Source: a virus
Lineage: Duplodnaviria; Heunggongvirae; Uroviricota; Caudoviricetes
Length of the DNA: 10,303 nucleotides
Reading direction: 5' to 3' (one strand)
IMG/VR virus record: IMGVR_UViG_2681813186_000015
A model generated the notes under the pieces. The model was not told where the DNA came from. It saw nothing but the letters and a program-made list of their open reading frames with translations, and made no database searches. The stretch's first letter is position 1. The number at the start of each line of letters is the position of its first letter. This document shows, in pieces, positions 466 through 10,303 of the stretch. A program made the position numbers and the translations under genes.

Positions 466-762
466 TCAGAATTGCATATCAATTTGCTTAAAATCCTCGG
501 TGGCAGCCGGGGATTTTTTCTTTGTGATTTCATCAAGCGCATACTTAAAAGCCCTGCTAATCGGACTGATGTCTGATGCCATTCCGAAAGCACACAAGAC
601 CGAAGCAATAAACCGCCAGTCCGTTCTGCTTATCTTCGATTCATGACAGCCAATCATCTTTGCCAGACCGCGCTGTGTAAGCGTTGACAGGTTGATGAGT
701 AAATCTGTTTCTGCGCGATCAACGTCGCGCTGTGATAGTTTGCTGTAACTTGTTCGTTCCAT
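466..762 (-). CDS. cII: CII-like transcriptional activator (lysogeny establishment)
   Basis: 98-aa ORF; C-terminus ...ITKKKSPAATEDFKQIDMQF resembles lambda CII C-terminus (...ILTNKKRPAATERSEQIQMEF, from memory); central HTH LTQRGLAKMIGCHESKISR. Lies immediately downstream of cro on the same strand, as in lambda. Confidence 0.85.
   Translation of the reverse strand: MERTSYSKLSQRDVDRAETDLLINLSTLTQRGLAKMIGCHESKISRTDWRFIASVLCAFGMASDISPISRAFKYALDEITKKKSPAATEDFKQIDMQF
495..523 (+). terminator. Rho-independent terminator on the plus strand inside the 3' end of cII; candidate 3' end of an oop-like antisense RNA
   Basis: Stem CCTCGG (495-500) pairs with CCGGGG (507-512), 5 Watson-Crick pairs plus one G-U, loop TGGCAG, followed by ATTTTTTCTTT (513-523). 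It is antisense to cII, which is where lambda places the oop terminator. Confidence 0.45.
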
Positions 763-771: not shown

Positions 772-847
772 TTTCCAATAGTGAATAGTTAGTTGAAAGG
801 TATGCGTGGAAACGCATATGGCCTTAGTTGGTCAGATATCTTGGGAC

Positions 848-893
848 TCGCTTTTCAGCGACGTAGGACGAATGTCCGTTGTTACAAAGAGCG
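848..893 (-). promoter_or_regulatory. nutR-like N-utilisation site (boxA, intervening hairpin, boxB) between cro and cII
   Basis: Read on the minus strand: boxA-like CGCTCTTTG (plus coords 885-893), hairpin GGAC-ATTC-GTCC, then boxB-like hairpin TCGCT-GAAA-AGCGA (plus coords 848-861). Near-colinear copy of the nutL-like element at 3497-3542. Confidence 0.55.
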
Positions 894-903
894 GCTCCGC
901 TTA

Positions 904-1119
904 TTAAGCGGCTTTGTGCTCCGGCGGGAACACGTCATCAAGACTTACTTTTGCGCCTAACTTGTTTAGACACGCAACAAGAGCACGGCATGTTTTAAGG
1001 TCTGGGAAGCGACGACCAGATTCCCAATGTCCGATAGCTCCCTGTGTGCATCCAACTGCCTTAGCAAGTGTTGTTTGAGAGATATTCAGTGACTCTCGAT
1101 ATTTTCGTAGGTTGCTCAT
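904..1119 (-). CDS. cro: Cro-like HTH repressor (Cro/C1-type)
   Basis: 71-aa ORF; ATG at 1119-1117 preceded by GGAGGG; HTH ISQTTLAKAVGCTQGAIGHWESGRR closely resembles the HTH of the divergent CI-like protein ([25 protein letters not shown]); divergent to the repressor across a 110-bp operator region. Confidence 0.8.
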   Translation of the reverse strand: MSNLRKYRESLNISQTTLAKAVGCTQGAIGHWESGRRFPDLKTCRALVACLNKLGAKVSLDDVFPPEHKAA

Positions 1120-1229
1120 ATGCCCTCCATAGTAACCACGAATAAAAAATACAATATGTACTTCTCAAATACAAGTAAAAATACACATTGTGCATGGATG
1201 GTTCCAGTACAGAGCGTAATAATAAGGAC
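1120..1229. promoter_or_regulatory. Divergent OR-like operator/promoter region (PR towards cro, PRM towards cI)
   Basis: Two 15-bp near-palindromes: AATACAATATGTACT (1148-1162) and ATACACATTGTGCAT (1182-1196), with TACA/TGTA half-sites. Candidate PR on minus strand: -35 TTGTAT (1174-1169), 17-nt spacer, -10 TATTTT (1151-1146). Candidate PRM -10 AATAAT (1218-1223) would start transcription near the cI ATG (leaderless, as in lambda). Confidence 0.55.
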
Positions 1230-1889
1230 ATGAAAATGAAATGGTATGAACTGGCTAGATCCAGAATGAAAGAGCTCGGCATAACTCAAGAGAAGTTAGC
1301 CGAAGAGCTAGGTATGACGCAGGGTGGAATTGGACACTGGTTGCGCGGATCTCGTCATCCATCTCTTAGTGATATTGGTGTGGTGTTTAAATACCTTGGT
1401 ATTGATAACATATCATTCAACCACGACGGGACATTTTCACCTGTTGGCGAATACTCATCGGCCCCAGTTAAAAAACAATATGAGTACCCTGTTTTTTCTC
1501 ATGTTCAGGCTGGGATGTTCTCTCCAGAACTCAGAACCTTTACCAAAGGTGATGCGGAGAGATTGGTAAGCACAACCAAAAAAGCCAGTGACTCTGCATT
1601 CTGGCTTGAGGTTGAAGGTAACTCAATGACCGCACCAACAGGTTCCAAACCTAGTTTTCCTGACGGGATGTTAATTCTGGTTGACCCTGAGCAAGCTGTT
1701 GAGCCCGGCGATTTCTGCATAGCCAGACTTGGTGGTGATGAATTTACCTTCAAGAAACTGATCAGGGATAGCGGTCAGGTGTTTCTACAACCACTAAACC
1801 CGCAATATCCAATGATCCCATGCAATGAGAGTTGTTCCGTTGTGGGGAAAGTTATCGCCAGCCAATGGCCTGAAGAGACGTTTGGGTAA
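1230..1889 (+). CDS. cI: CI-like prophage repressor, N-terminal HTH plus C-terminal S24 (LexA-like) self-cleaving peptidase domain
   Basis: [24 protein letters not shown]; Ala-Gly cleavage site in HVQAGMFSP; catalytic Ser in EGNSM and Lys in FTFKKL. The track start at 1188 is a TTG; first ATGs are at 1194, 1230 and 1236. 1230 was chosen because it fits a leaderless PRM transcript; 1236 has better spacing from AAGGA (1224-1228). Confidence 0.9.
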
Positions 1890-2207
1890 AGAGGATAGAT
1901 GGAGTTTAATGGCCATGAGTATCAAGCGGTCAAAAAGAAGTTCATCTATTCATTGAAAGCATAAGGCCATCTGAGTATATCCGTAATGATCTGGATATTG
2001 TCTATAACATCAATGACCGGACGATAGATATCGGTGAGCAGCGTCCTGTATGGCAGGGTGAGGCAGGTGAAAAAACGTCCTGCCATCAACAAGAATCAAG
2101 TGCATCCGCTCTCTGGACAGATGGAAAATTTATTGGATGCAAAAAGATATGAAATAACACCTGTATAGCACGGAGCTTTCTCTGACCGATGCACTTGAAG
2201 TTGTTAG

Positions 2208-2232
2208 GGCTGACCCAGCCTGCTGTTTCTTT
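2208..2232 (+). terminator. Candidate Rho-independent terminator, first of a tandem pair downstream of cI
   Basis: Stem GGCTG (2208-2212) pairs with CAGCC (2216-2220), loop ACC, followed by TGCTGTTTCTTT. Confidence 0.4.
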
Positions 2233-2263
2233 AGGTAAGAGAAAAGAGATTTAGGAGATGAAA

Positions 2264-2290
2264 GGTCGCAGAGGTGCGGCCTTTTTTATT
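2264..2290 (+). terminator. Rho-independent terminator downstream of the cI transcript
   Basis: GGTCGCA (2264-2270) pairs with TGCGGCC (2275-2281), 7-bp stem with one G-U, loop GAGG, followed by TTTTTTATT (2282-2290). Confidence 0.6.
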
Positions 2291-2329
2291 GAGAGTGGAT
2301 CTTGAACGGAAATTCTCAAGACTTGAGTC

Positions 2330-2358
2330 TTGCATGCAAATCAATTCCTGGATAAACT
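2330..2358 (+). promoter_or_regulatory. Candidate sigma70 promoter for the 173-aa accessory gene
   Basis: -35 TTGCAT (2330-2335), 17-nt spacer, -10 TAAACT (2353-2358). Overlaps palindromes CTCAAGaCTTGAG (2315-2327) and TGCATGCA (2331-2338). Confidence 0.3.
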
Positions 2359-2390
2359 CGATCTGAGTCAATAACTTAGAGAGAGAGCAA

Positions 2391-2912
2391 ATGGCAAAGT
2401 CAAACGTTAGCGTGCAGGCATTCAAGGACTTCCTTGAAGAGCTTATGTCGCTGAACATAATGAAGGAGGCCACCGCTCGAAATTTAAAAAACTCATCCGC
2501 TCGCCTCTTAACGGTAGTCCAAGAAGAGGAAATGGGTGATGTTACTCAGCTTGATGTGAATGAGCTTGCCGAGCGATACATCAACGCAACTGAGCCGAAG
2601 CCTAGCGACAGCAGCATTACTGCATATAAAAGCCGCATGGAAAGTGCAATCAAAAAGTTTGTAGCTTTCCAGTCTGGTGAAGAAATCCCATACACTCCGA
2701 TTGACAAAGAATCCAGTGAGGAAAAAGATTTGACTGGCGAACCAACAAAAGTCGAAGGCAAGGCTAATGCACTTCATACCTATGATCTTCCAGTAGTTCT
2801 TCGACCTGAATCAGGGGTTACAGTAACGATTAAAGGCATTCCTAACGATATCACAAACGAAGAAGCCGAACGCATCTCTTCAATTCTGAAGGTTTACGTT
2901 CGGCCTCAATAA
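2391..2912 (+). CDS. Hypothetical acidic 173-aa protein of unknown function, inserted between cI and pL (accessory 'moron' gene)
   Basis: Complete ORF with a GAGAG-type ribosome-binding site; candidate own promoter upstream and hairpin downstream; lies after the cI terminators and before pL. Appears more AT-rich than neighbouring phage genes (by eye). Soluble, rich in D/E, no motif I can assign. Confidence 0.6.
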   Translation: MAKSNVSVQAFKDFLEELMSLNIMKEATARNLKNSSARLLTVVQEEEMGDVTQLDVNELAERYINATEPKPSDSSITAYKSRMESAIKKFVAFQSGEEIPYTPIDKESSEEKDLTGEPTKVEGKANALHTYDLPVVLRPESGVTVTIKGIPNDITNEEAERISSILKVYVRPQ

Positions 2913-2924
2913 TGCAAAAGCATT

Positions 2925-2963
2925 CAGCACAATGTCCAACTCCCCAGTCCGACATTGATGCTG
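2925..2963 (+). other. Stem-loop just downstream of the 173-aa gene (possible weak terminator or 3' stabiliser)
   Basis: CAGCAcAATGTC (2925-2936) pairs with GACATTgaTGCTG (2951-2963), about 11 bp with a small bulge, 14-nt loop, followed by a short TTT. Confidence 0.35.
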
Positions 2964-3085
2964 TTTAACCAGAGCCTCCAAAAGGAGCCCTTGTTAAGGT
3001 ACACAATATTTGCGATGTAACCTTAGCGCGTCTGGTACATTTTTTCAAGCGGTTGTAGGGCTGCCGCCAATATGAGAAAACACAG

Positions 3086-3208
3086 ATGTCTACATACAAT
3101 TTGAATGACCAATTCGATCGAGAAGTTCATGTGAATGCCTATGAACGGATAAGGTATGGAAATCTTGAACATGTGTGTGAGCATTATCGCTCAAGGCCAC
3201 ACCGCTAA
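3086..3208 (+). CDS. Possible small ORF (39 aa), or a short non-coding transcript, ending at a strong terminator
   Basis: ATG 3086 to TAA 3206-3208, translation MSTYNLNDQFDREVHVNAYERIRYGNLEHVCEHYRSRPHR; weak ribosome-binding site; possible promoter TTCAAG-18-CAATAT upstream; strong terminator 8 nt after the stop. Coding status uncertain. Confidence 0.2.
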   Translation: MSTYNLNDQFDREVHVNAYERIRYGNLEHVCEHYRSRPHR

Positions 3209-3215
3209 TCATCAA

Positions 3216-3244
3216 CCCGGCCTCCATGCCGGGTTTTCTTTTCC
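3216..3244 (+). terminator. Rho-independent terminator (plus strand) just upstream of the pL-like promoter
   Basis: CCCGGC (3216-3221) pairs with GCCGGG (3228-3233), loop CTCCAT, followed by TTTTCTTTTCC. The minus-strand version has no U-tract. Confidence 0.65.
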
Positions 3245-3378
3245 TCTCGCCCAAAAAAACACATAACCAATTGTATTTATTGGAAAATAAATAGATACAA
3301 CTCACTAAACAACGCAATTCTGATCTCTCCTTACATCGCCGAGGCAATACACCCACGCTAAAAAACAATACTATTAAA

Positions 3379-3451
3379 TACAAAGCGTTGTAAAAAACCG
3401 CCCCGTTTTAGAACAAATTGTATTGACCAAGTGAAGTACATATCGTACTAT
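3379..3451 (+). promoter_or_regulatory. pL-like early-left promoter with candidate OL operators
   Basis: -35 TTGACC (3423-3428), 17-nt spacer, -10 TACTAT (3446-3451). Near-palindromes TACAAAGCGTTGTA (3379-3392) and AGTACATATCGTACT (3437-3451) share TACA/GTA half-sites with the OR-region palindromes. Confidence 0.55.
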
Positions 3452-3496
3452 TTAACCATCAGCAGGACGCTGGAAGCCAAATGGAACAGACTGGCA

Positions 3497-3542
3497 GGCT
3501 CTTTAAACAACGTCGACTCTCGACTACGTGGCTGAAAAGCCA
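3497..3542 (+). promoter_or_regulatory. nutL-like site (boxA, hairpin, boxB) in the leader of the N-like gene
   Basis: boxA-like GGCTCTTTAA (3497-3506; compare consensus CGCTCTTTA), hairpin GTCGA-CTC-TCGAC, boxB-like hairpin TGGCT-GAAA-AGCCA (3529-3542). Same architecture and near-identical boxB to the nutR-like element on the other strand. Confidence 0.6.
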
Positions 3543-3640
3543 GATCACCCAACCACATAAGCTGTGGGATGCAATGCCGAAGCAACCGTCTCAGGAGGAG
3601 CTTCGAGATTGCATCGCCAAAGTTTATTCGGGAGGAATCT

Positions 3641-3913
3641 ATGTCCAGAAAAACAGAATTTAAAGGCACCGCAGCTTCTCGCCGTAGAGCTCGTCGCGCA
3701 AACCTGCAAAGTCAGGAGGCGATTAGCTCCGACAAACTACACAGGCCAACCCCATCACGAGTGGTCTTACAATGCAAACGCAAACCAGCAATGAGAGCAG
3801 AAGTAATAACACTGACAACGTTGACCAGAAAATATGAAGGCTCAACTTGTCTTCCAAATGTAGCTCTTTACGCGGCAGGCTACCATAAATCCAAACAACT
3901 GACAGCAAGATGA
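3641..3913 (+). CDS. N: N-like transcription antitermination protein (arginine-rich motif)
   Basis: Internal ATG at 3641 with GGAGG (3631-3635) 5 nt upstream; 90 aa; N-terminal arginine-rich motif GTAASRRRARRANLQ resembles the boxB-binding motif of lambda N (…QTRRRERRAEKQAQW…); first gene after the pL-like promoter and nutL. The upstream part of the track ORF (from 3569) overlaps the nut site and was dropped. Confidence 0.6.
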   Translation: MSRKTEFKGTAASRRRARRANLQSQEAISSDKLHRPTPSRVVLQCKRKPAMRAEVITLTTLTRKYEGSTCLPNVALYAAGYHKSKQLTAR

Positions 3914-3971
3914 CTTGTGTTGGTCGCCAGAAAATGAAATTAGGCAGCAAACCACTTATTTGAGGTGATAT

Positions 3972-4223
3972 ATGGAATTTCATGAAAGTGCGATTTGTGA
4001 TTTTCGCGCTAACGCAAATTCAGTAAAACCACAGCCAATTGCAGTTCTTTTAAAAACAATGGGTGCGTGGGCTGTTTTATGCTTCGCCGCTGACGACACT
4101 GACGCAAGAATGGCAATAGGACAAGAGATGGAGATGGACCCGACAAACGATGAATTCATAATTTATGGCGCTCCATCTAATTACTTACTTGATACCTGCA
4201 ACATTTACAACAAGGCTGCCTGA
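3972..4223 (+). CDS. Hypothetical protein, 83 aa
   Basis: ATG 3972 with GAGG 6 nt upstream; sits where lambdoid phages carry ral-type accessory genes; no homology recognised. Confidence 0.5.
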   Translation: MEFHESAICDFRANANSVKPQPIAVLLKTMGAWAVLCFAADDTDARMAIGQEMEMDPTNDEFIIYGAPSNYLLDTCNIYNKAA

Positions 4224-4269
4224 TGGTGGCCTTTATTTTTGGCATAAACAACAGAATAAACACAGCACT

Positions 4270-4297
4270 GTGTATTCATTCCAACGAGTGAATACAC
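4270..4297 (+). repeat. Perfect 9-bp inverted repeat with 10-nt loop
   Basis: GTGTATTCA (4270-4278) and TGAATACAC (4289-4297); no U-tract after it. Confidence 0.5.
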
Positions 4298-4359
4298 GGA
4301 GCAATGTCGCTCGTAACTGAACAGGAGCCGACTTGTTCTGATTATTGGAAATCTTCTTT

Positions 4360-4385
4360 GCCCTCCAGTGTGAGGGCTTTTTTAT
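4360..4385 (+). terminator. Rho-independent terminator (tL1-like) within the early-left operon
   Basis: GCCCTC (4360-4365) pairs with GAGGGC (4372-4377), loop CAGTGT, followed by TTTTTTAT. Expected to be read through by N-modified RNA polymerase. Confidence 0.7.
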
Positions 4386-4449
4386 ATGCATACCAATAAC
4401 GCTTCACTCGAGGCGTTTTCGTTATGCAATCAAATATAAGGAGTTACCC

Positions 4450-4584
4450 ATGATGCACTTTCAGCTCGCGGGTAGCGGCGTCATGTCCGCTTTCTACCCG
4501 CACGAATCTGAATTATCACGCCAAGTTAAACAATTAATCAGAGCAGCAAAGAAACAACTGGAGGCGTTATGCGCAATGAAATAG
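4450..4584 (+). CDS. cIII: CIII-like small protein (candidate FtsH inhibitor protecting CII), 44 aa
   Basis: ATG 4450 with AAGGAG (4438-4443) 6 nt upstream; MMHFQLAGSGVMSAFYPHESELSRQVKQLIRAAKKQLEALCAMK resembles lambda CIII (…YAIAGWPVAGCPSESLLDRITRKLRDGWKRL…, from memory); position after N as in lambda and P22. The track ORF start at 4345 spans the terminator and was rejected. Confidence 0.5.
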   Translation: MMHFQLAGSGVMSAFYPHESELSRQVKQLIRAAKKQLEALCAMK

Positions 4585-4721
4585 CCATTAATCACCAGAT
4601 GCTTCGTGCTGCACAGAACAAAGCAGTAATAGCCCGATTTATTGGTGATTCAAAAATGTGGCTTGAAGCAAATAAAGCGATGAAATCAGCTATCAACCTT
4701 CCGTGGTATCGCAGGAAATGA
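4569..4721 (+). CDS. kil: Kil-like small protein (tentative), 50 aa
   Basis: ATG 4569 with GGAGG (4560-4564) 4 nt upstream, overlapping the cIII-like stop; MRNEIAINHQMLRAAQNKAVIARFIGDSKMWLEANKAMKSAINLPWYRRK; the IARFIGDSKMW segment resembles the FIGDEKM region I recall in lambda Kil; gene order cIII then kil as in lambda. Confidence 0.4.
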   Translation: MRNEIAINHQMLRAAQNKAVIARFIGDSKMWLEANKAMKSAINLPWYRRK

Positions 4722-4796
4722 GTTTTACAGATAACTGGTCAGACGAAGAATTCATTCGTCAGATGAAAGATTTAATCGGTAACGAAGGAGATATTC

Positions 4797-4967
4797 ATGT
4801 CACTTGCAACCACAGTGAAGGAGAGCAAGTTACAGAGACGCATGTACACGCAGAAAGCTCTCTGGTATCGCCATAATGGCGACCGCGAAGGAATGCGGGT
4901 ATGCCTTAATTTGTCCCGAGTCGAAGTATTAAATCAGCGTTATTTTCTTGGGCCATGTCCATTCTGA
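4797..4967 (+). CDS. Hypothetical small protein, 56 aa
   Basis: ATG 4797 with AAGGAG (4785-4790) 6 nt upstream; MSLATTVKESKLQRRMYTQKALWYRHNGDREGMRVCLNLSRVEVLNQRYFLGPCPF; stop 4965-4967 is followed 8 nt later by the start of the annealing-protein gene. A competing 52-aa ORF (4718-4876, other frame, ATGA overlap with the Kil-like stop) has weaker Shine-Dalgarno support. Confidence 0.4.
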   Translation: MSLATTVKESKLQRRMYTQKALWYRHNGDREGMRVCLNLSRVEVLNQRYFLGPCPF

Positions 4968-4975
4968 GGTGAATT

Positions 4976-5683
4976 ATGGATTTGAACAAATTCGATGAGC
5001 CATTCAGCCCTGAAGATATCGAATGGCGAATACAGCAAAGCGGTAAAACACGCGATGGAAAGGTGTGGGCTATGGTGCTGGCTTATGTCACGAACAGGGC
5101 AATCATGAAACGCCTGGATGATGTTTGCGGCAAAGCAGGATGGCGCAATGAATACCGCGATATTCCCAACAACGGCGGCGTTGAATGCGGCATATCAATA
5201 AAGATTGATTCCGAATGGGTAACCAAATGGGATGCTGCTGAAAACACGCAGGTAGAAGCCGTCAAAGGTGGTCGTTCCGGTGCAATGAAGCGCGCTGCCG
5301 TTCAGTGGGGAATCGGTCGGTATCTGTATAACCTTGAGGAAGGTTTCGCACAAACATCTCTCGATAAAAAGCAGGGGTGGCACAGGGCAAAACTGAAGGA
5401 TGGAACAGGATTTTACTGGCTCCCTCCATCGCTTCCGGGATGGGCAATCCCAGCATCAGATAACAAACCATCACCAGAAAATACCAACCAGAAATCTCCA
5501 TCGGTTGACTGCGAACAAATCCTGAAAGACTTCAGCGATTATGCGTCAACAGAAACTGACAAGAAAAAACTCATCGAGCGTTATCAGCGTGACTGGCAAT
5601 TAATGGCTGGCAACGAGGAAGCGCAGGCTAAATGCGTTCAGGTAATGAACATCAGAGTTAACGAACTAAAACAGGCGGCATAA
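4976..5683 (+). CDS. Rad52/22-family single-strand annealing protein (phage recombinase, Sak/Erf functional analogue)
   Basis: 235 aa; IMKRLDDVCGKAGWRNEY and KGGRSGAMKRAAVQWGIGRYLY match conserved Rad52 N-terminal-domain signatures; GAGG upstream; directly followed by ssb. Confidence 0.8.
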   Translation: MDLNKFDEPFSPEDIEWRIQQSGKTRDGKVWAMVLAYVTNRAIMKRLDDVCGKAGWRNEYRDIPNNGGVECGISIKIDSEWVTKWDAAENTQVEAVKGGRSGAMKRAAVQWGIGRYLYNLEEGFAQTSLDKKQGWHRAKLKDGTGFYWLPPSLPGWAIPASDNKPSPENTNQKSPSVDCEQILKDFSDYASTETDKKKLIERYQRDWQLMAGNEEAQAKCVQVMNIRVNELKQAA

Positions 5684-6190
5684 ATGGCAAGCAGAGGCGT
5701 AAATAAGGTGATTATCCTTGGTCGGGTAGGACAAGACCCGGAAGTTCGATACTCACCATCAGGAACAGCGTTCGCTAACCTGACAATAGCCACGTCAGAA
5801 CAATGGCGAGATAAAAATACTGGCGAGCAAAAGGAATTGACTGAATGGCATCGTGTTGCTGTATCCGGGAAACTGGCTGAGGTCGTGGGGCAGTATGTGA
5901 AAAAAGGTGATCAGATTTATTTCGAAGGAATGCTGAGAACCAGAAAGTGGAAAGACCAGTCAGGGCAAGACCGTTACACAACCGAGGTTCATGTCGGAAT
6001 TAATGGCGTGATGCAAATGCTTGGCGGCATTGGCGACAGCAAACAACAAGCAGCCAGCAGGCAATCACAGAAGCCACAGCAGCAATCATCACCAGCACAA
6101 CACAACGAACCTCCGATGGATTTTGACGACGATATACCCTTTGCACCAGTAACTCTCCCCTTCCCTCGTCACGCTATTCACGCAATTTAA
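5684..6190 (+). CDS. ssb: Single-stranded DNA-binding protein (SSB), with a 15-aa extension beyond the canonical DDDIPF terminus
   Basis: [23 protein letters not shown]…TEWHRV…[19 protein letters not shown]…MDFDDDIPF is near-identical in pattern to E. coli SSB; the ORF continues [15 protein letters not shown] before TAA at 6188-6190. Start abuts the upstream stop (TAAATG). Confidence 0.9.
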
Positions 6191-6198
6191 GGACTTAC

Positions 6199-6747
6199 AT
6201 GAATCACTTAATGGTTGACCTTGAAACAATGGGCAACGGGCCATACGCGCCAGTTATTTCTATTGGGGCGGTATTCTTTGACCCGAATACCGGAGAAACA
6301 GGAGAAGAGTTCTCGGTAAATATCTCGCTTGAGTCATCAATGCGATATCGGGCGCGTCCTGACGCTTCAACGATTTTATGGTGGATGGAACAGAGTGAAG
6401 AAGCCAGAAAATCGCTAACCAGCAACACTCAAGAGCTTTCAACGGCTCTTTCATGGTTATCTGAATTCATCATAAAGAACGCTAACCACAAATTCGTTCA
6501 GGTTTGGGGGAATGGAGCATCATTTGACTGCGTTATTCTCCGAAACAGTTATTCGCTGACAGGGCAGCCAGTTCCGTGGCAGTGGTGGAATGACCGCGAC
6601 GTAAGAACAATCGTCGAACTTGGGAAGGTAATAGGATTCGACCCTAAGCGAGATATGCCATTCAAAGGAACTCGCCACAACGCGCTTGATGATGCCATTC
6701 ACCAAGCCAAATACGTTTCAGCGATCTGGAAAAAGTTAGCTAAATAA
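6199..6747 (+). CDS. DEDDh-family (DnaQ-like) 3'-5' exonuclease
   Basis: 182 aa; Exo I motif MVDLETMG, Exo II WGNGASFD, Exo III RHNALDDAIHQA (H-x4-D); AAGGA 5 nt upstream of ATG 6199. Confidence 0.75.
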   Translation: MNHLMVDLETMGNGPYAPVISIGAVFFDPNTGETGEEFSVNISLESSMRYRARPDASTILWWMEQSEEARKSLTSNTQELSTALSWLSEFIIKNANHKFVQVWGNGASFDCVILRNSYSLTGQPVPWQWWNDRDVRTIVELGKVIGFDPKRDMPFKGTRHNALDDAIHQAKYVSAIWKKLAK

Positions 6748-6763
6748 TCAACAGGAGAAAACC

Positions 6764-7060
6764 ATGCCAGCGCCTCTGTATGGTGCGGATGACGCGCGCC
6801 GCTGTTCCGGCAATTCCGTATCGGAGGTGCTGGATAAATTCAGGAAAAACTACGACAGGATAATGTCGCTACCGCAGGAAACGAAAGAGGAAAAGGAATT
6901 TCGCCACTGTATATGGCTTGCAGAGAAAGAAGAACGCGAGCGAATTTACCAGACATCAATCCGACCATTCCGCAAAGCCACATATACCCACTTCCCTGAA
7001 TATATCGACCCGCGCCTGCGTAATTACCGCTCACGCTATGGCGCTATCAGTAATGGTTGA
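6764..7060 (+). CDS. Hypothetical protein, 98 aa
   Basis: ATG 6764 with AGGAG (6753-6757) 6 nt upstream; basic and acidic stretches; no homology recognised. Confidence 0.6.
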   Translation: MPAPLYGADDARRCSGNSVSEVLDKFRKNYDRIMSLPQETKEEKEFRHCIWLAEKEERERIYQTSIRPFRKATYTHFPEYIDPRLRNYRSRYGAISNG

Positions 7061-7070
7061 GGAATTAACA

Positions 7071-7361
7071 ATGAAAACAATGAAGCTAAACATCGACCTC
7101 GGCAAATACGTTATTACCGGAACCAAACACGACCTGATTCTTAGTGAAAGAGGAATTATCAAAGAAGGTGAGAATGCAGGGAAAGAAACACTAAGTCGTA
7201 TCGGTTATTACAGCAAGTTTGAGCATCTGGTTAAAGAGTTATGCAACCGTGAAATTCTGTTATCTCAGGCGCAGACGTTACAGGATATTCAGCAGCATAT
7301 CGAGACTGTATGTGTGTCACTTAGCATGGCTATTGACCAGTTCGTGGAGAGTAAATCATGA
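7071..7361 (+). CDS. Hypothetical protein, 96 aa
   Basis: Internal ATG 7071 with GAGGAA (7059-7064) 6 nt upstream, right after the previous stop; the track ORF start at 6918 overlaps the preceding gene and was rejected. Confidence 0.6.
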
Positions 7362-7522
7362 GGGGACTTGCATACAATCCCGGCATTCTTCCGGCAGAAA
7401 TGATTATTCGCCAACGCGTAAAGCCAATGCCATCGAGAGAGGAATTGCTTAAGAGAAATTCTTTTCCATCAGTGAATCAAAACAAATATCTGAATGCGAT
7501 GTGGCGGAGTGGGAAGAAATGA
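7358..7522 (+). CDS. Hypothetical small protein, 54 aa, translationally coupled on both sides
   Basis: ATG 7358 overlaps the upstream stop (ATGA); GGAGAG 7 nt upstream; its stop TGA 7520-7522 overlaps the next start ATG 7519 (ATGA); [54 protein letters not shown]. Confidence 0.4.
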
Positions 7523-8019
7523 AACAAATGACACTAATTGAGATGGATGGTTTTCTGAAAGGTGAATGCATCCCACGAGATTTAAAGGTTAACGAAACAA
7601 ACGCTGAATATCTTGTCCGTAAGTTCGGTGAACTTGAATCAAAACTAGAAACGGCGTTGCGGGAGTGTCGTTCTGCTGGAATCACGATTGATAACCTTGA
7701 GGCCAAGTGCGCGGCGCTGGTAGCGGAGAGTGCGGGGATGAAGAAGTTCTGCAAAGACGCTGCATTCGATGCCGATTACGAAGCAGAGCTAGGTATGGAG
7801 CGTGGTGGATTCAGTGATGCGCTTAACGAAATCAAAACCCCAGCCACCGATGCTTTCCTGGCTGAAGTCCGGGCTAAGGCGTTTGATGACCTTTGCGCGG
7901 CGTTCGTTAAGCACGCGTCGGTGTCCGGGCTGGACGATGGCGACTGCGTTACGGTGAAAGAGGCGACTGACGCTCTGCTGCATTGTGCGGAACAGCTTCA
8001 CGAGGGAGTGCATTCATGA
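7519..8019 (+). CDS. Hypothetical protein, 166 aa
   Basis: ATG 7519 chosen over the track GTG start at 7501; acidic, Ala-rich; no motif recognised. Confidence 0.6.
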
Positions 8020-8249
8020 GCAACCTACTACCATGTCCATTCTGTGGCGGCGCAGCGCACGTTGCCAGCGAAGCAGATCACCCTGAATATGGCTCTGGCG
8101 GTCGATTCTATTTCGTTCGATGCGGTACGTGTCGCGCTCAATCTGGTAGCAAATATGCAGCGCCTGGAAATGACTGCGCGATTTTTTATTCAGAGGTTAG
8201 AGCAGAGTGGAATCAGCGAGCAAAGGAGGCAACCAGTGAGCGAAATTGA
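8016..8249 (+). CDS. lar: Lar-family restriction-alleviation protein (small zinc-ribbon protein)
   Basis: ATG 8016 overlaps the upstream stop (ATGA); GAGGGAG 7 nt upstream; 77 aa with CPFCGG … CGTC … AEWNQRA, matching the Lar family pattern as I recall it (CPFCGG N-terminal knuckle, WNRRA-type C-terminus). Confidence 0.65.
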   Translation: MSNLLPCPFCGGAAHVASEADHPEYGSGGRFYFVRCGTCRAQSGSKYAAPGNDCAIFYSEVRAEWNQRAKEATSERN

Positions 8250-8832
8250 CTATCAGGCACTGCGTGAGGCGGCGGAACGTGCAATTCCAGCAATGGAACG
8301 CCTGTTAATGTTGCCAGTTGATGATGATTTGTTAAGTGAACAGGAACTTAAAGATTACGGTGTGGATATTGATGCGCTCAACGCCTTCAAATTTCTGGCC
8401 GGACCAGAAACCGTGCTGGCACTACTGGATGAGATCAACGCATTAGAGGAAACGCGTATCAACGATGTTTGCCGTATTGCGGAACTAACAAAACAACTGG
8501 AGTCGGCAAAATCAAAACTCAACGAGCAGCGTGAATATTACGAGGGAGTAATCTCGGATGGGAGTAAGCGTATTGCAGAACTGGAAAGCAACGAAGTCCG
8601 TGAAGACGGAAATCAGTTTCTTGTTGTTCGCCACCCCGGGAAAACTCCTGTCATCAAGCACTGCACTGGTGACCTGGAAGAGTTTCTGCGGAAGTTAATC
8701 GAACAAGACCCGTTAGTAACTATCGACATCATTACGCATCGCTATTACGGGATTGGCGGTCAATGGGTTCAGGATGCAGTTGAGTATCTGCATATGATGT
8801 CTGACGCAGGTATTCGCATCAAAGGAGAGTGA
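8236..8832 (+). CDS. Hypothetical protein with predicted coiled-coil segment, 198 aa; start uncertain
   Basis: GTG 8236 preceded by AAGGAGG (8223-8229) with 6-nt spacer, overlapping the Lar stop by 14 nt; earlier in-frame ATGs (8089, 8155) lie inside the Lar gene; central heptad-like region INALEETRINDVCRIAELTKQLESAKSKLNEQ. Confidence 0.5.
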   Translation: MSEIDYQALREAAERAIPAMERLLMLPVDDDLLSEQELKDYGVDIDALNAFKFLAGPETVLALLDEINALEETRINDVCRIAELTKQLESAKSKLNEQREYYEGVISDGSKRIAELESNEVREDGNQFLVVRHPGKTPVIKHCTGDLEEFLRKLIEQDPLVTIDIITHRYYGIGGQWVQDAVEYLHMMSDAGIRIKGE

Positions 8833-8833
8833 T

Positions 8834-9382
8834 ATGACCACTATAACCGATAAGAAACAGTATCCCAGCAAGCAATATCTTAATGAGCTGATCACCAACA
8901 TAGAGTTTGCTGCAAGGGCACCAGTTGAAGTCGTGAGAGCGATGGCAGCAGAGCTACAGAAGCGGCGCGAAGCTGATAGTGCAGAACCTGTAAGCCAAAC
9001 TTACAAGTTGCCAGTTAATACACCTTGCCAAGATGCGCCAGCCCATATCTGGCTGCAAACGGCTGGAGTATGGCCAGAAGATGGCGAGTTAAGCGAATTA
9101 ACGTGGTGCAGCCACAATCAGCACCATGATGACACGCTATATGTTCGAGCTGACCTTGTGAATGGCAACTCTCCGGTAATTCCGGATGGTTGGATAAGCT
9201 GTAGTGAGCGAATGCCGGATAAGTTAATTCCGGTAATGGTCATGTATGAAGACGGTGAGATGTGGTCTGCAATGTGGAATGGTAATCGCTGGGATGATGG
9301 CACCGAATATCCGGATCCGCACTCAGTTACGCACTGGCGTGAAATGCCAGCAGCACCGAAGCAGGAGGTTAACCGTGGCTAA
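8834..9382 (+). CDS. DUF551-like phage protein
   Basis: 182 aa; ATG 8834 with AAAGGAGAG upstream; C-terminal …SVTHWREMPAAPK resembles the conserved DUF551 C-terminal signature (…THWMPLPEPP) as I recall it. Confidence 0.6.
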   Translation: MTTITDKKQYPSKQYLNELITNIEFAARAPVEVVRAMAAELQKRREADSAEPVSQTYKLPVNTPCQDAPAHIWLQTAGVWPEDGELSELTWCSHNQHHDDTLYVRADLVNGNSPVIPDGWISCSERMPDKLIPVMVMYEDGEMWSAMWNGNRWDDGTEYPDPHSVTHWREMPAAPKQEVNRG

Positions 9383-9659
9383 CCTGCAACTTGCCGTTAA
9401 AGGTGAATACTTCGATGCCATGATTCGCGGAGAGAAAACGGAAGAGTATCGCCTGTGTAATGACTACTGGAAAAAGCGCCTCGTTAACCGTAAGTATGAC
9501 CGCCTGATTATCACAAAGGGATATCCGAAGCGCGACGACTTCAGTCGCAGAATTGATGTCCCGTATGACGGATATGAAATCAAGACAATCACACATCCCC
9601 ACTTCGGCGATAAACCGGTAAAGGTATACGCGATAAAGGTGAATATCAGCAATGAATAA
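9375..9659 (+). CDS. Hypothetical protein, 94 aa
   Basis: GTG 9375 preceded by AGGAGG (9363-9368) with 6-nt spacer, overlapping the upstream stop; the track ORF start at 9246 lies inside the previous gene. Confidence 0.5.
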   Translation: MANLQLAVKGEYFDAMIRGEKTEEYRLCNDYWKKRLVNRKYDRLIITKGYPKRDDFSRRIDVPYDGYEIKTITHPHFGDKPVKVYAIKVNISNE

Positions 9660-9730
9660 CAATCCTCGCATTCGCGGGGATTTCTTTTATCTGAACTCGC
9701 TACGGCGGGTTTTGTTTTATGGAGATGATT

Positions 9731-10030
9731 ATGGCCTGTTCAACATTCAACCCTCTAACGTTACAGAAATACCAGCCAGACCCTGAAGATTTATGCTCAC
9801 TGTGTGGCGGAAATCATGGTAAAGCAGCCATGATCGAATGTAAGGACAAAATCCACATTTGCCTTAATTGCGTTGATGTCCTCGTTGATATCAAAAATGA
9901 GAGAGAAGATAAAAAGCGTAGCGAGGCTGTTCGCGCCTTAGATTCATGGATGCGAGATGGATATAGTGCCGCGCAAATTTATGACTTAGCAATATCAAAA
10001 GGCGAAATACCAGGAGTACGCATCGAATAA
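9731..10030 (+). CDS. Hypothetical Cys-rich protein (possible zinc-ribbon), 99 aa
   Basis: ATG 9731 with GGAG (9721-9724) 6 nt upstream (alternative ATGs at 9719 and 9725); CSLCGG … CLNC spacing suggests a four-Cys metal site. Confidence 0.55.
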   Translation: MACSTFNPLTLQKYQPDPEDLCSLCGGNHGKAAMIECKDKIHICLNCVDVLVDIKNEREDKKRSEAVRALDSWMRDGYSAAQIYDLAISKGEIPGVRIE

Positions 10031-10072
10031 GACGTAACCGATATTCGAATTGAAGAACTGAAAGAACACCAA

Positions 10073-10096
10073 GCCGCCTGATGGCGGTTTCTTTTT
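10073..10096 (+). terminator. Rho-independent terminator upstream of the excisionase-like gene
   Basis: CCGCC (10074-10078) pairs with GGCGG (10083-10087), loop TGAT, followed by TTTCTTTTT. Confidence 0.6.
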
Positions 10097-10111
10097 GCCT
10101 GGAGAATTAAG

Positions 10112-10303
10112 ATGACCGATACCAGCCTGATTCCTGAGAAAGAAGTGATGAACAAGCTCGGTGTTTCATCACGTCAGACAATCTGGAACTATACCAAACG
10201 GCACGGATTTCCGAAGCCAGTCAGAACCCACCCCAAATCATACCTTCGTGAAGCTGTTGAAGGGTGGATTCTTAACGGTGGCGTTAATCAGAAATGCTCC
10301 TGA
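10112..10303 (+). CDS. AlpA-family phage transcriptional regulator / excisionase-like protein
   Basis: 63 aa; ATG 10112 with GGAG 7 nt upstream; LIPEKEVMNKLGVSSRQTIWNYTKRHGFPKPVR is the typical AlpA/Xis-type HTH pattern; sits at the distal end of the early-left operon where xis precedes int in lambdoid phages. Confidence 0.75.
   Translation: MTDTSLIPEKEVMNKLGVSSRQTIWNYTKRHGFPKPVRTHPKSYLREAVEGWILNGGVNQKCS

Follow-up and report, generated by a model that had tools for sequence, protein, structure and literature searches.

The closest described system to the locus studied here is that of phage H-19B (also HK97/933W-type). Its nutR has two hairpins; N together with NusA/NusG protects the spacer and boxB, and the spacer is protected by Rho alone (PMC3526286). 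The N/nut-dependent read-through has been demonstrated for H-19B nutR/tR1 (PMC3526286, PMC4499122). The lambda N reads a GNRNA loop as a GNRA fold, for which the U-A closing pair is needed (PMC12027372), and in the P22 complex the GACAA loop adopts the GNRA fold with its C looped out (PMC12550061). The boxA of rrn is UGCUCUUUA followed by ACAAUUUA, and the lambda boxA is CGCUCUUA (PMC2724277).

The window, that is the whole stretch of 10,303 nucleotides analysed from a Caudoviricetes virus record, shares 99.8% sequence identity with VT2-Sakai and with other Stx phages. The VT2-Sakai record (GenBank AP000422) carries a “putative N-utilization leftward” at positions corresponding to 3497–3537 of the window and a “putative N-utilization rightward” at those corresponding to 854–893. 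The nutL/nutR pair is already known, being annotated in public Stx-phage records, and its discovery value is small as the sites are annotated in VT2-Sakai and the architecture has been studied in H-19B; the only mildly new feature is the four-base boxB loop tied to a particular version of N. When the window was scanned against Rfam at E ≤ 1, two chance-level matches came up elsewhere and none at the nut elements, Rfam being without a nut family. A literature search, with Neely & Friedman 2000 and Cocozaki et al. 2008 outside its reach, found no published description of a Sakai-type or tetraloop boxB, no published experimental test of the Sakai-type N/nut pair and no published account of a link between the loop type and the type of arginine-rich motif (ARM) that N carries. 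Tetraloops are not mentioned in PMC6023938.

The nutL and nutR elements compared with known systems

We consider, with a probability of about 0.9, that a lambdoid N antitermination system of the H-19B/Stx-phage architectural class uses the two elements as its nutL and nutR RNA sites. The preliminary description had proposed such a pair, and the position, strand, boxA, boxB, cognate N gene, relatives and VT2-Sakai annotation support it. The pairwise alignment showed nutL and nutR to be colinear through GCTCTTT, ..CAAC, the hairpin, CTACGT and (G/C)GCTGAAAAGC(C/G)A. The pattern GCTCTTT-N(15-30)-CTACGTSGCTGAAAAGCSA matched the window exactly twice, at 3498–3542 (+) and 848–892 (−), with 0.00 matches expected from 200 dinucleotide shuffles, and a 19-nt core still gave just two window matches when 3 mismatches were allowed. 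Each boxB hairpin folds at −6.5 kcal/mol (z = −4.1 for nutL and −3.6 for nutR), and the spacer hairpins fold at −4.9 kcal/mol (z = −2.4) in nutL and −5.2 kcal/mol (z = −3.8) in nutR. The pattern match, alignment and folds together confirmed exactly the earlier view of two colinear elements with a boxA-like sequence, a hairpin and a 5-bp boxB with a GAAA loop. Both sites carry GCUCUUU, which is related to the boxA consensus (C/U)GCUCUU(U)A (PMC2724277), and 3′ of it the short hairpin typical of boxB, with a 5-bp stem and a GAAA loop of the GNRA-fold kind. This loop is a true tetraloop, unlike the pentaloop of lambda and P22.

Both elements lie on the transcribed strand, one after pL and before N and the other after pR and cro (Table 1). 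In the pL transcript, nutL comes after ∼40 nt and is followed 99 nt later by the N start, and nutR begins 11 nt past the cro stop codon, ahead of the tR1 hairpin and cII. The cognate N gene, recognised by its Pfam match, follows nutL and is preceded by a GGGAGG Shine-Dalgarno sequence. Its product has an N-terminal ARM, SRRRARRANLQS, and a P22-type C-terminus, LPNVALYAAGYHKSKQLTAR, and matched no chain in a PDB sequence search even at E ≤ 10. The sequence of the tR1 region is that of the H-19B nutR/tR1 region used in vitro (PMC3526286). The terminator downstream of N was present as described earlier, with a stem and a T run, and is predicted to be the first strong N target in the pL operon.

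Table 1. Positions of the nut elements and neighbouring features in the window.
Feature	Position	Strand	Basis and remarks
nutL, whole (boxA, spacer hairpin, UACG linker, boxB)	3497..3542	+	Pattern match, covariance model, AP000422 annotation
nutL boxA, GCUCUUUAAACAAC	3498..3511	+	Sequence; rrn-type (GCUCUUUA..ACAA), not lambda-type (GCUCUUA)
nutL spacer hairpin, GUCGA-CUC-UCGAC	3512..3524	+	Fold, shuffles, covariation
UACG linker, spacer hairpin to boxB (nutL)	3525..3528	+	Elements of relatives
nutL boxB, UGGCU-GAAA-AGCCA, loop 3534–3537	3529..3542	+	Fold, covariation; U-A closing pair, GNRA tetraloop
nutR, whole	848..893	−	Pattern match, alignment, nutL-only covariance model, AP000422 annotation
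nutR boxA, GCUCUUUGUAACAAC	878..892	−	Sequence, pattern match
nutR spacer hairpin, GGAC-AUUC-GUCC	866..877	−	Fold; identical to H-19B nutR hairpin
nutR boxB, UCGCU-GAAA-AGCGA, loop 853–856	848..861	−	Fold; H-19B has UCGCU-GACAA-AGCGA here
N gene, 90 aa	3641..3913	+	Pfam PF25694 N_peptide, E 2.2e-31; alignment to H-19B N and others
pL, TTGACC-17-TACTAT	3423..3451	+	Sequence; depositors' “putative major leftward promoter” at the same place
cro, first gene of pR operon, directly upstream of nutR	904..1119	−	HTH_3 match; annotated cro
tR1 region hairpin, UAUGCGUUUCCACGCAUA, between nutR and cII	793..818	−	Annotated “putative rho dependent terminator for pR transcript”
Intrinsic terminator after N, pL operon	4360..4385	+	GCCCTC-CAGTGT-GAGGGC then TTTTTT
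Weaker terminator-like sites	4212–4233 and 4398–4417		Sequence

The window shares with H-19B the layout of boxA region, ACAA(C/U), spacer hairpin, UACG and 5-bp boxB, the stem-loop between boxA and boxB being found at both sites. From the nutR spacer hairpin to cII, the two sequences differ only by one inserted or deleted C in the boxB loop and by two substitutions, and the two N proteins are homologues that have 57% identity and share their C-terminus. The two systems differ in the boxB loop (GAAA in the window and GACAA in H-19B), in the ARM (SRRRARRANLQS and SRRRERLKAKALANG, respectively, the latter two residues longer in the alignment) and in the length of N (90 and 127 aa). They also differ in boxA, which is a good GCUCUUU at both window sites but absent from H-19B nutL and CGCUAUUUU in H-19B nutR. 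The good boxA at both sites suggests that NusB/E may be used here; a reduced host-factor requirement of the H-19B-type NUT is reportedly named in the title of the Neely and Friedman paper of 2000.

The likeness to lambda lies in the order of boxA and then boxB, sites placed after pL and cro, a U-A closing pair, a GNRA-fold loop and an N-terminal ARM, and the window ARM AASRRRARRANLQSQ is 41% identical to lambda AQTRRRERRAEKQAQ over the aligned stretch, as compared with 33% for P22 and H-19B. Lambda differs in its boxA (GCUCUUA), in its unstructured spacer of 8–9 nt and GAAGA/GAAAA pentaloops, neither of which was found at the window sites, and in an N that has Trp18 and a different C-terminal module. 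P22 resembles the window in its boxA GCUCUUUA, in the C-terminal module (..ALYAAGHRKSKQITAR) of its N, gp24, and in the 5-bp boxB stem, but its nut has GACAA pentaloops and no spacer hairpin (AACUUCGAUGAU). A covariance model of the window nut family gave no match in the lambda locus and none in P22. The window boxAs, GCUCUUUAAACAAC and GCUCUUUGUAACAAC, share with E. coli rrn UGCUCUUUAACAAUUUA an additional U and a tail of ACAA (PMC2724277), whereas rrn has boxB before boxA, a dispensable boxB and no N protein (PMC8632103). The preliminary description correctly set the tetraloop and the spacer hairpin apart from lambda, but the novelty it implied for the hairpin was overstated, as H-19B-type nut sites are already known to have one (PMC3526286). 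The hairpin of H-19B nutR is identical to the one in the window nutR.

Conservation of the hairpins and alternative explanations

A covariance model built on four nutL elements, with no nutR included, gave 72.8 bits to nutL of the window and 38.5 bits (E 5e-12) to its nutR, against 7 bits for the match ranked next. An IMG/VR scan with N gave only N proteins of 97–100%, and the diversity of relatives came from a motif scan and from a query alignment led by a divergent N. The 29 distinct nut elements were parsed by structure and then aligned under the guidance of the covariance model, as MAFFT gaps were not placed structurally. In these elements, 99.6% of the cells were paired (76% in shuffles), changes on both sides were seen in 7 of the 10 pairs (4/5 in the spacer and 3/5 in boxB), and the covariation score was 0.507 against 0.122 in shuffles for an alignment that was fitted to the model; the signal collapsed when the partners were slid. 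Five unrelated spacer stems (GUCGA, GAUUC, GGUGA, GGCGA and GGAC) occupy one position, and the shuffle probability of the spacer stem ranged from 0.002 to 0.02 among the nutL classes and was 0.05 for the nutR stem of 4 bp. For nutL, 0.24% of the shuffles of the 20 nt upstream of UACG produced a 5-bp stem that ran up to the UACG boundary. The UACG linker itself is constant across relatives save one CACG. The invariance of GGACATTCGTCCTACG in some nutR spacers is by construction, because they were gathered with this exact motif. Furthermore, both elements were present at every locus carrying the Sakai-type N whose DNA reached far enough, which removes the concern raised earlier that relatives with the same N might lack them.

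The spacer hairpin could instead be a leftover or neutral spacer without a role in antitermination, serving in nutR only the Rho-dependent tR1 as a part of rut. The protection of the H-19B nutR spacer by Rho alone agrees with this, as does a hairpin loop that varies freely in sequence and length (3–6 nt). We consider it unlikely, as compensatory changes keep the hairpin at nutL and nutR in every lineage examined, the hairpin always adjoins the invariant UACG linker and boxB, and N with NusA/NusG also protects it in H-19B (PMC3526286).

Another explanation is an RNA-structure switch, in which the loop and 3′ arm of boxB (GAAA.AGCC) take boxA (GGCU.CUUU) as their partner and hide it until N binds boxB. 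The minimum-energy folds of whole nutL (−14.1 kcal/mol) and whole nutR (−12.6 kcal/mol) do use this pairing, where the two separate hairpins sum to −11.4 and −11.7 kcal/mol, respectively, and the title, at least, of Neely & Friedman 2000 mentions “alternative NUT RNA structures”. The complementarity is, however, automatic from GCUCUUU facing GAAAAGC; the base preceding GCUCUUU showed by eye no consistent covariation with the boxB stem, and the local hairpins should form first during transcription. The boxA:boxB pairing was rejected as it is not conserved among relatives, H-19B nutL and nutR and the nutL of two other relatives (L123 and L267) folding as two hairpins, and a switch of this kind is judged quite improbable. 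The idea that GTCGACTCTCGAC and the boxB sequences, which are palindromic in DNA, are protein-binding inverted repeats near early promoters has next to no likelihood, because the G.U wobble pairs are confined to the transcribed strand, which favours an RNA-level structure, the stems change sequence freely yet stay complementary, the annotated operators are in other places and the elements lie inside transcripts, downstream of pL and cro.

boxB loop type and N ARM type

No exception to the match between boxB loop type and N type was seen among 142 distinct N-to-nutR segments: the 102 short-ARM N proteins go with GAAA or GCAA tetraloops only and the 40 long-ARM H-19B-type N proteins with GACAA pentaloops only, the independent N lineages behind these counts being few (∼8 short-ARM and 2–3 long-ARM variants). 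The pairing holds within shared cro-side contexts too. Two seeming cases of a short ARM with GACAA were a classifier artefact, both in fact having the long ARM with V in place of an A, RRRERLKVKALANG. The GACAA pentaloop and the ARM RRRERLKAKALANG of the H-19B type were not found in the window, which has GAAA and, in the comparison with the H-19B class, the ARM RRRARRANLQS. The window nut sites are not of the H-19B class but of a sister specificity class.

Removing the looped-out C from the H-19B/P22 GACAA gives GAAA, as does removing the extruded fourth base from the lambda GAAAA, and the window loop is thus a canonical GNRA fold. It is possible, although rather doubtful, that the Sakai-type N/boxB forms a distinct recognition class, in which a Trp-less lambda-like ARM reads a GNRA tetraloop without an extruded base, is functionally orthogonal to the H-19B/P22 GACAA class and leaves the NusA contact to the spacer hairpin and UACG; other systems are thought to make this contact partly via the extruded loop base. 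If true, it would be a natural minimal “one nucleotide/two residues” specificity switch in an otherwise identical nutR/tR1.

Proposed working of the nut sites and its significance

As nut sites, the elements would work by analogy with the systems described above. Upon transcription from pL or pR, each site would expose a single-stranded rrn-type boxA (GCUCUUU..ACAAC), which may bind NusB-NusE. The sequence-independent spacer hairpin and the UACG linker would form the NusA docking region and in nutR overlap the tR1 rut site, a role carried over from H-19B because there this region is footprinted by N with NusA/NusG and by Rho. The GAAA loop of boxB and its U-A closing pair are probably bound by the N-terminal ARM of the 90-aa N, the ARM doing the reading being two residues shorter than that of H-19B and closer to that of lambda. 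The tethered N-Nus complex is expected to let RNA polymerase read through tR1 (793–818) and the tL terminators (4212–4417).

That tetraloops go without exception with the short ARM and pentaloops with the long one, in near-identical nutR contexts, is a natural experiment on ARM-RNA specificity, and it bears on whether Nus-factor assembly needs an extruded boxB base. A further orthogonal N/boxB tethering pair might also be drawn from it. In Stx-converting phages, early-operon expression is licensed by N antitermination at these sites, upstream of Q and toxin release, and the N/nut system is medically relevant because toxin release lies downstream of such antitermination.

nut elements in a mosaic immunity region

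The window represents an immunity and early region of lambdoid type. The region spanning 3400–3920 was 99.8% identical to VT2-Sakai, Stx1-converting phage, Stx2 phage II and dozens more O157:H7 Stx phages, and because the best coverage of the whole window by any single phage record was ≤51%, it is a mosaic with a Sakai-type immunity region. Downstream of N (~4400–10303), the window diverges from VT2-Sakai, which has ea10-cIII-kil-gam-bet-exo there; the window has a different module, with an SSB-like ORF (5684–6190) and further ORFs.

Features of the immunity and early region, in window positions
Feature	Position	Strand	Description
cII	466–762	-	Pfam Phage_CII
nutR	893–848	-	C-GCUCUUUGUAACAAC / GGAC-AUUC-GUCC / UACG / UCGCU-GAAA-AGCGA
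cro	904–1119	-	HTH_3
cI	1236–1889	+	HTH_3 and Peptidase_S24
pL-like promoter	3423–3451		TTGACC-17-TACTAT
nutL	3497–3542	+	G-GCUCUUUAAACAAC / GUCGA-CUC-UCGAC / UACG / UGGCU-GAAA-AGCCA
N, 90 aa	3641–3913	+	Pfam PF25694 N_peptide, E 2.2e-31
Terminator-like site 3' of N	4212–4233		
Terminator-like site 3' of N	4360–4377		GCCCTC..GAGGGC and T6
Terminator-like site 3' of N	4398–4417		

The paired elements noticed in the preliminary description were found exactly where it had placed them and with the colinear layout. The pattern of this layout matched only nutL and nutR in the window, where 0.00 matches were expected from 200 dinucleotide shuffles, and the same two sites alone were recovered with the 19-nt core at ≤3 mismatches. 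All four hairpins folded as described (-4.9 to -6.5 kcal/mol, z -2.4 to -4.1). A covariance model was made from nutL elements alone, four in number and each from different phages; it picked up the window nutR with a score of 38.5 bits and an E of about 5e-12. The next-best match of this model in the window, at 3299–3347 (+; AACUCACUAAACAAC..UACAUCGCCGAGGCAA), was weak (7.1 bits, E 0.24); it lies upstream of pL, outside the pL transcript, and is probably due to chance.

The nutL lies about 40 nt 3' of the pL-like promoter and 99 nt 5' of N, and nutR starts 11 nt past the cro stop and is followed by a hairpin (793–818) and then cII. In AP000422, the GenBank record of VT2-Sakai, the “putative N-utilization leftward” and “rightward” features correspond to window 3497–3537 and 854–893, and the “putative rho dependent terminator for pR transcript” to 793–818. 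The position of the elements relative to pL, cro, N, the hairpin of tR1 (the Rho-dependent terminator region) and cII, together with this annotation, supported their earlier reading as nutL and nutR. Because AP000422 annotates both nut sites, the feature is already on record, and its architecture is known from H-19B.

The predicted N start at 3641, the same as in AP000422, is supported by a GGGAGG Shine-Dalgarno sequence and by alignment to other N proteins. In AP005153, N was annotated as 114 aa from the ATG equivalent to window 3569 (3569–3913, +), and several more ORFs over its nut/N region look spurious. Over the N stop (TGA, 3911–3913), the region 3910–3963 (+) reads in another frame as MTCVGRQKMKLGSKPLI and a stop, resembling the lambda N C-terminus (..GITCSGRQKIKGKSIPLI and a stop). 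From its sequence, it looks like a fossil lambda/21-type RNAP-binding tail displaced by a P22-type C-terminus (..ALYAAGYHKSKQLTAR), and would thus mark a mosaic junction. The leader from nutL to the N start (3543–3645, +) folds as one long extended hairpin reaching the Shine-Dalgarno region (-39.5 kcal/mol, z -4.4), a stability equalled in 0 of 200 shuffles, and recalls the RNase III-processed stem of the lambda N leader. The H-19B and g341c leaders differ in sequence and also contain long inverted repeats.

Spacer hairpin and the conserved nut core

The relatives compared were H-19B, Shigella phage POCJ13, Salmonella phages g341c and 103203_sal5, and about 280 IMG/VR loci, and all of them shared the layout of boxA region, ACAA(C/U), hairpin, UACG and 5-bp boxB. 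Five unrelated spacer stems occupied one position (GUCGA/UCGAC, GAUUC(R)/(U)GAAUC, GGUGA/UCACC, GGCGA/UUGCC and GGAC/GUCC), with loops of 3–6 nt and variable sequence. Shuffling gave a perfect stem that stopped exactly at the UACG boundary in 0.2–2% of trials per independent class; for the nutR stem of 4 bp the figure was 5%. In a model-guided alignment of 29 distinct elements, which was fitted to the covariance model and included one batch of nutR elements gathered by exact spacer motif, standard pairs filled 99.6% of cells versus 76.2% in shuffles, both sides changed in 7 of the 10 pairs, and the covariation score was 0.507 versus 0.122, the signal being lost when partners were slid by 1–3 columns. 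The nutL hairpins and the nutR of three loci (L207, L208 and L267) had not been picked by exact spacer motif. The occurrence of G.U pairs on the transcribed strand points to a structure formed in RNA.

Instead of two hairpins, boxA could pair with the 3' half of boxB; in the window this pairing is the minimum-energy prediction for either nut site folded whole, because boxA GCUCUUU is complementary to boxB GAAAAGC, but it is not the minimum-energy fold in H-19B, L123 and L267 and is not conserved among relatives, and we regard it as incidental.

The two-hairpin arrangement is also present in H-19B, whose nutR/tR1 region, from spacer hairpin to cII start, is the same as that of the window except for one C and two substitutions. 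The nutR boxB loop is GACAA in H-19B and GAAA in the window (a single C), and the boxA segments of nutR are unlike. The H-19B nutR/tR1 was the in vitro template of the Sen laboratory, which showed N-dependent read-through from this nutR (PMC4499122), and given its two hairpins the extra spacer hairpin is an established feature of this lambdoid branch. The hairpin does differ from lambda, as had been claimed, but is not unusual within this branch. In lambda and P22, the spacers are short and unstructured and the loops are pentaloops, in contrast to the spacer hairpin and tetraloop of the window; the claimed difference from the lambda pentaloop was confirmed, and the nutL-built model found no match in lambda or P22.

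The conserved core of the H-19B/Sakai-type nut family is hairpin-UACG-boxB, and boxA seems optional. This fits the “reduced requirement for host factors” that Neely & Friedman 2000 name in their title.

Beyond the anatomy, position, N family membership, covariation and loop linkage found for the window, binding and read-through may be proposed by analogy with lambda, P22 and H-19B. NusB-NusE would bind the rrn-type boxA (consensus from PMC2724277) and NusA the spacer region (after PMC2724277 and H-19B footprints), the boxB tetraloop would be bound by the arginine-rich motif (ARM) at the N-terminus of N, and the tethered complex would read through the tR1 and tL terminators.

Among individual relatives, the H-19B nutL has no recognisable GCUCUUU boxA and reads ..GGUGAAUAUACAAC, with ACAAC, hairpin, UACG and boxB kept. 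The nutR of L005, L006 (103203_sal5), L155 and L164 likewise has no recognisable GCUCUUU boxA (g341c-type nutR, CACCACUUCCAACAAC), the rest of the core being kept.

boxB loop type and ARM class of N

The N proteins formed two ARM classes. The short ARM, RRR-x-(R/H/A)-R-(A/K)-x-(L/M)-Q, includes the window N (SRRRARRANLQS), and the long ARM of the H-19B/HK97 class (RRRERLKAKALANG) exceeds it by two residues when aligned. Across 142 distinct N-to-nutR segments, representing a modest number of independent lineages (about eight short-ARM and two or three long-ARM variants), the nut sites found with short-ARM N carried a GNRA tetraloop (GAAA or GCAA; 102/102) and those with long-ARM N carried GACAA (40/40, deviant sal5-type nutL aside), with zero exceptions. 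Two apparent exceptions were rejected as a classifier artefact.

In the P22 complex, the C of GACAA is looped out and the loop adopts a GNRA fold (PMC12550061), and GNRNA is read by lambda N as a GNRA fold, with a U-A closing pair required (PMC12027372). Since these loops are a GNRA fold with an extruded base, the window GAAA is the canonical fold with none; the U-A closing pair is retained. The lambda ARM was 41% identical to the short ARM, as against 33% for P22 or H-19B, and contains a Trp (W18), whereas the short ARM has no Trp at the equivalent position.

The long-ARM 103203_sal5 (about 4880–4900, +) and L114 have a deviant nutL boxB, GCUC-C-GUCAA-C-GAGC, in which a C.C mismatch closes the loop, resembling P22 boxB-right (CCGC-C-GACAA-C-GCGG); the nutR of 103203_sal5 has a U.G closing pair. 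Two IMG/VR loci, L214 and L223, encode hybrid N proteins with unrelated N-termini (MNSKQRYNARRMTAHNAAK.. and MNAKERKKLARAIAHRAEV..) on an L123-type C-terminus (..ICLPQVAIFAAGHRSDKYEHPYHV..). Their leaders are without the UACG-boxB motif, L223 having UGCUUCUUUAACAA and then a different hairpin. These two are a further specificity class from module exchange.

The ARM-loop rule was also true inside one and the same cro-side sequence context, which suggests that selection fits the nutR loop to N across this mosaic immunity region. No published description of the tetraloop/short-ARM class was found in the literature searched, and the residual interest lies in an easily tested point, the strict link of the GNRA tetraloop boxB to the shorter lambda-like ARM.
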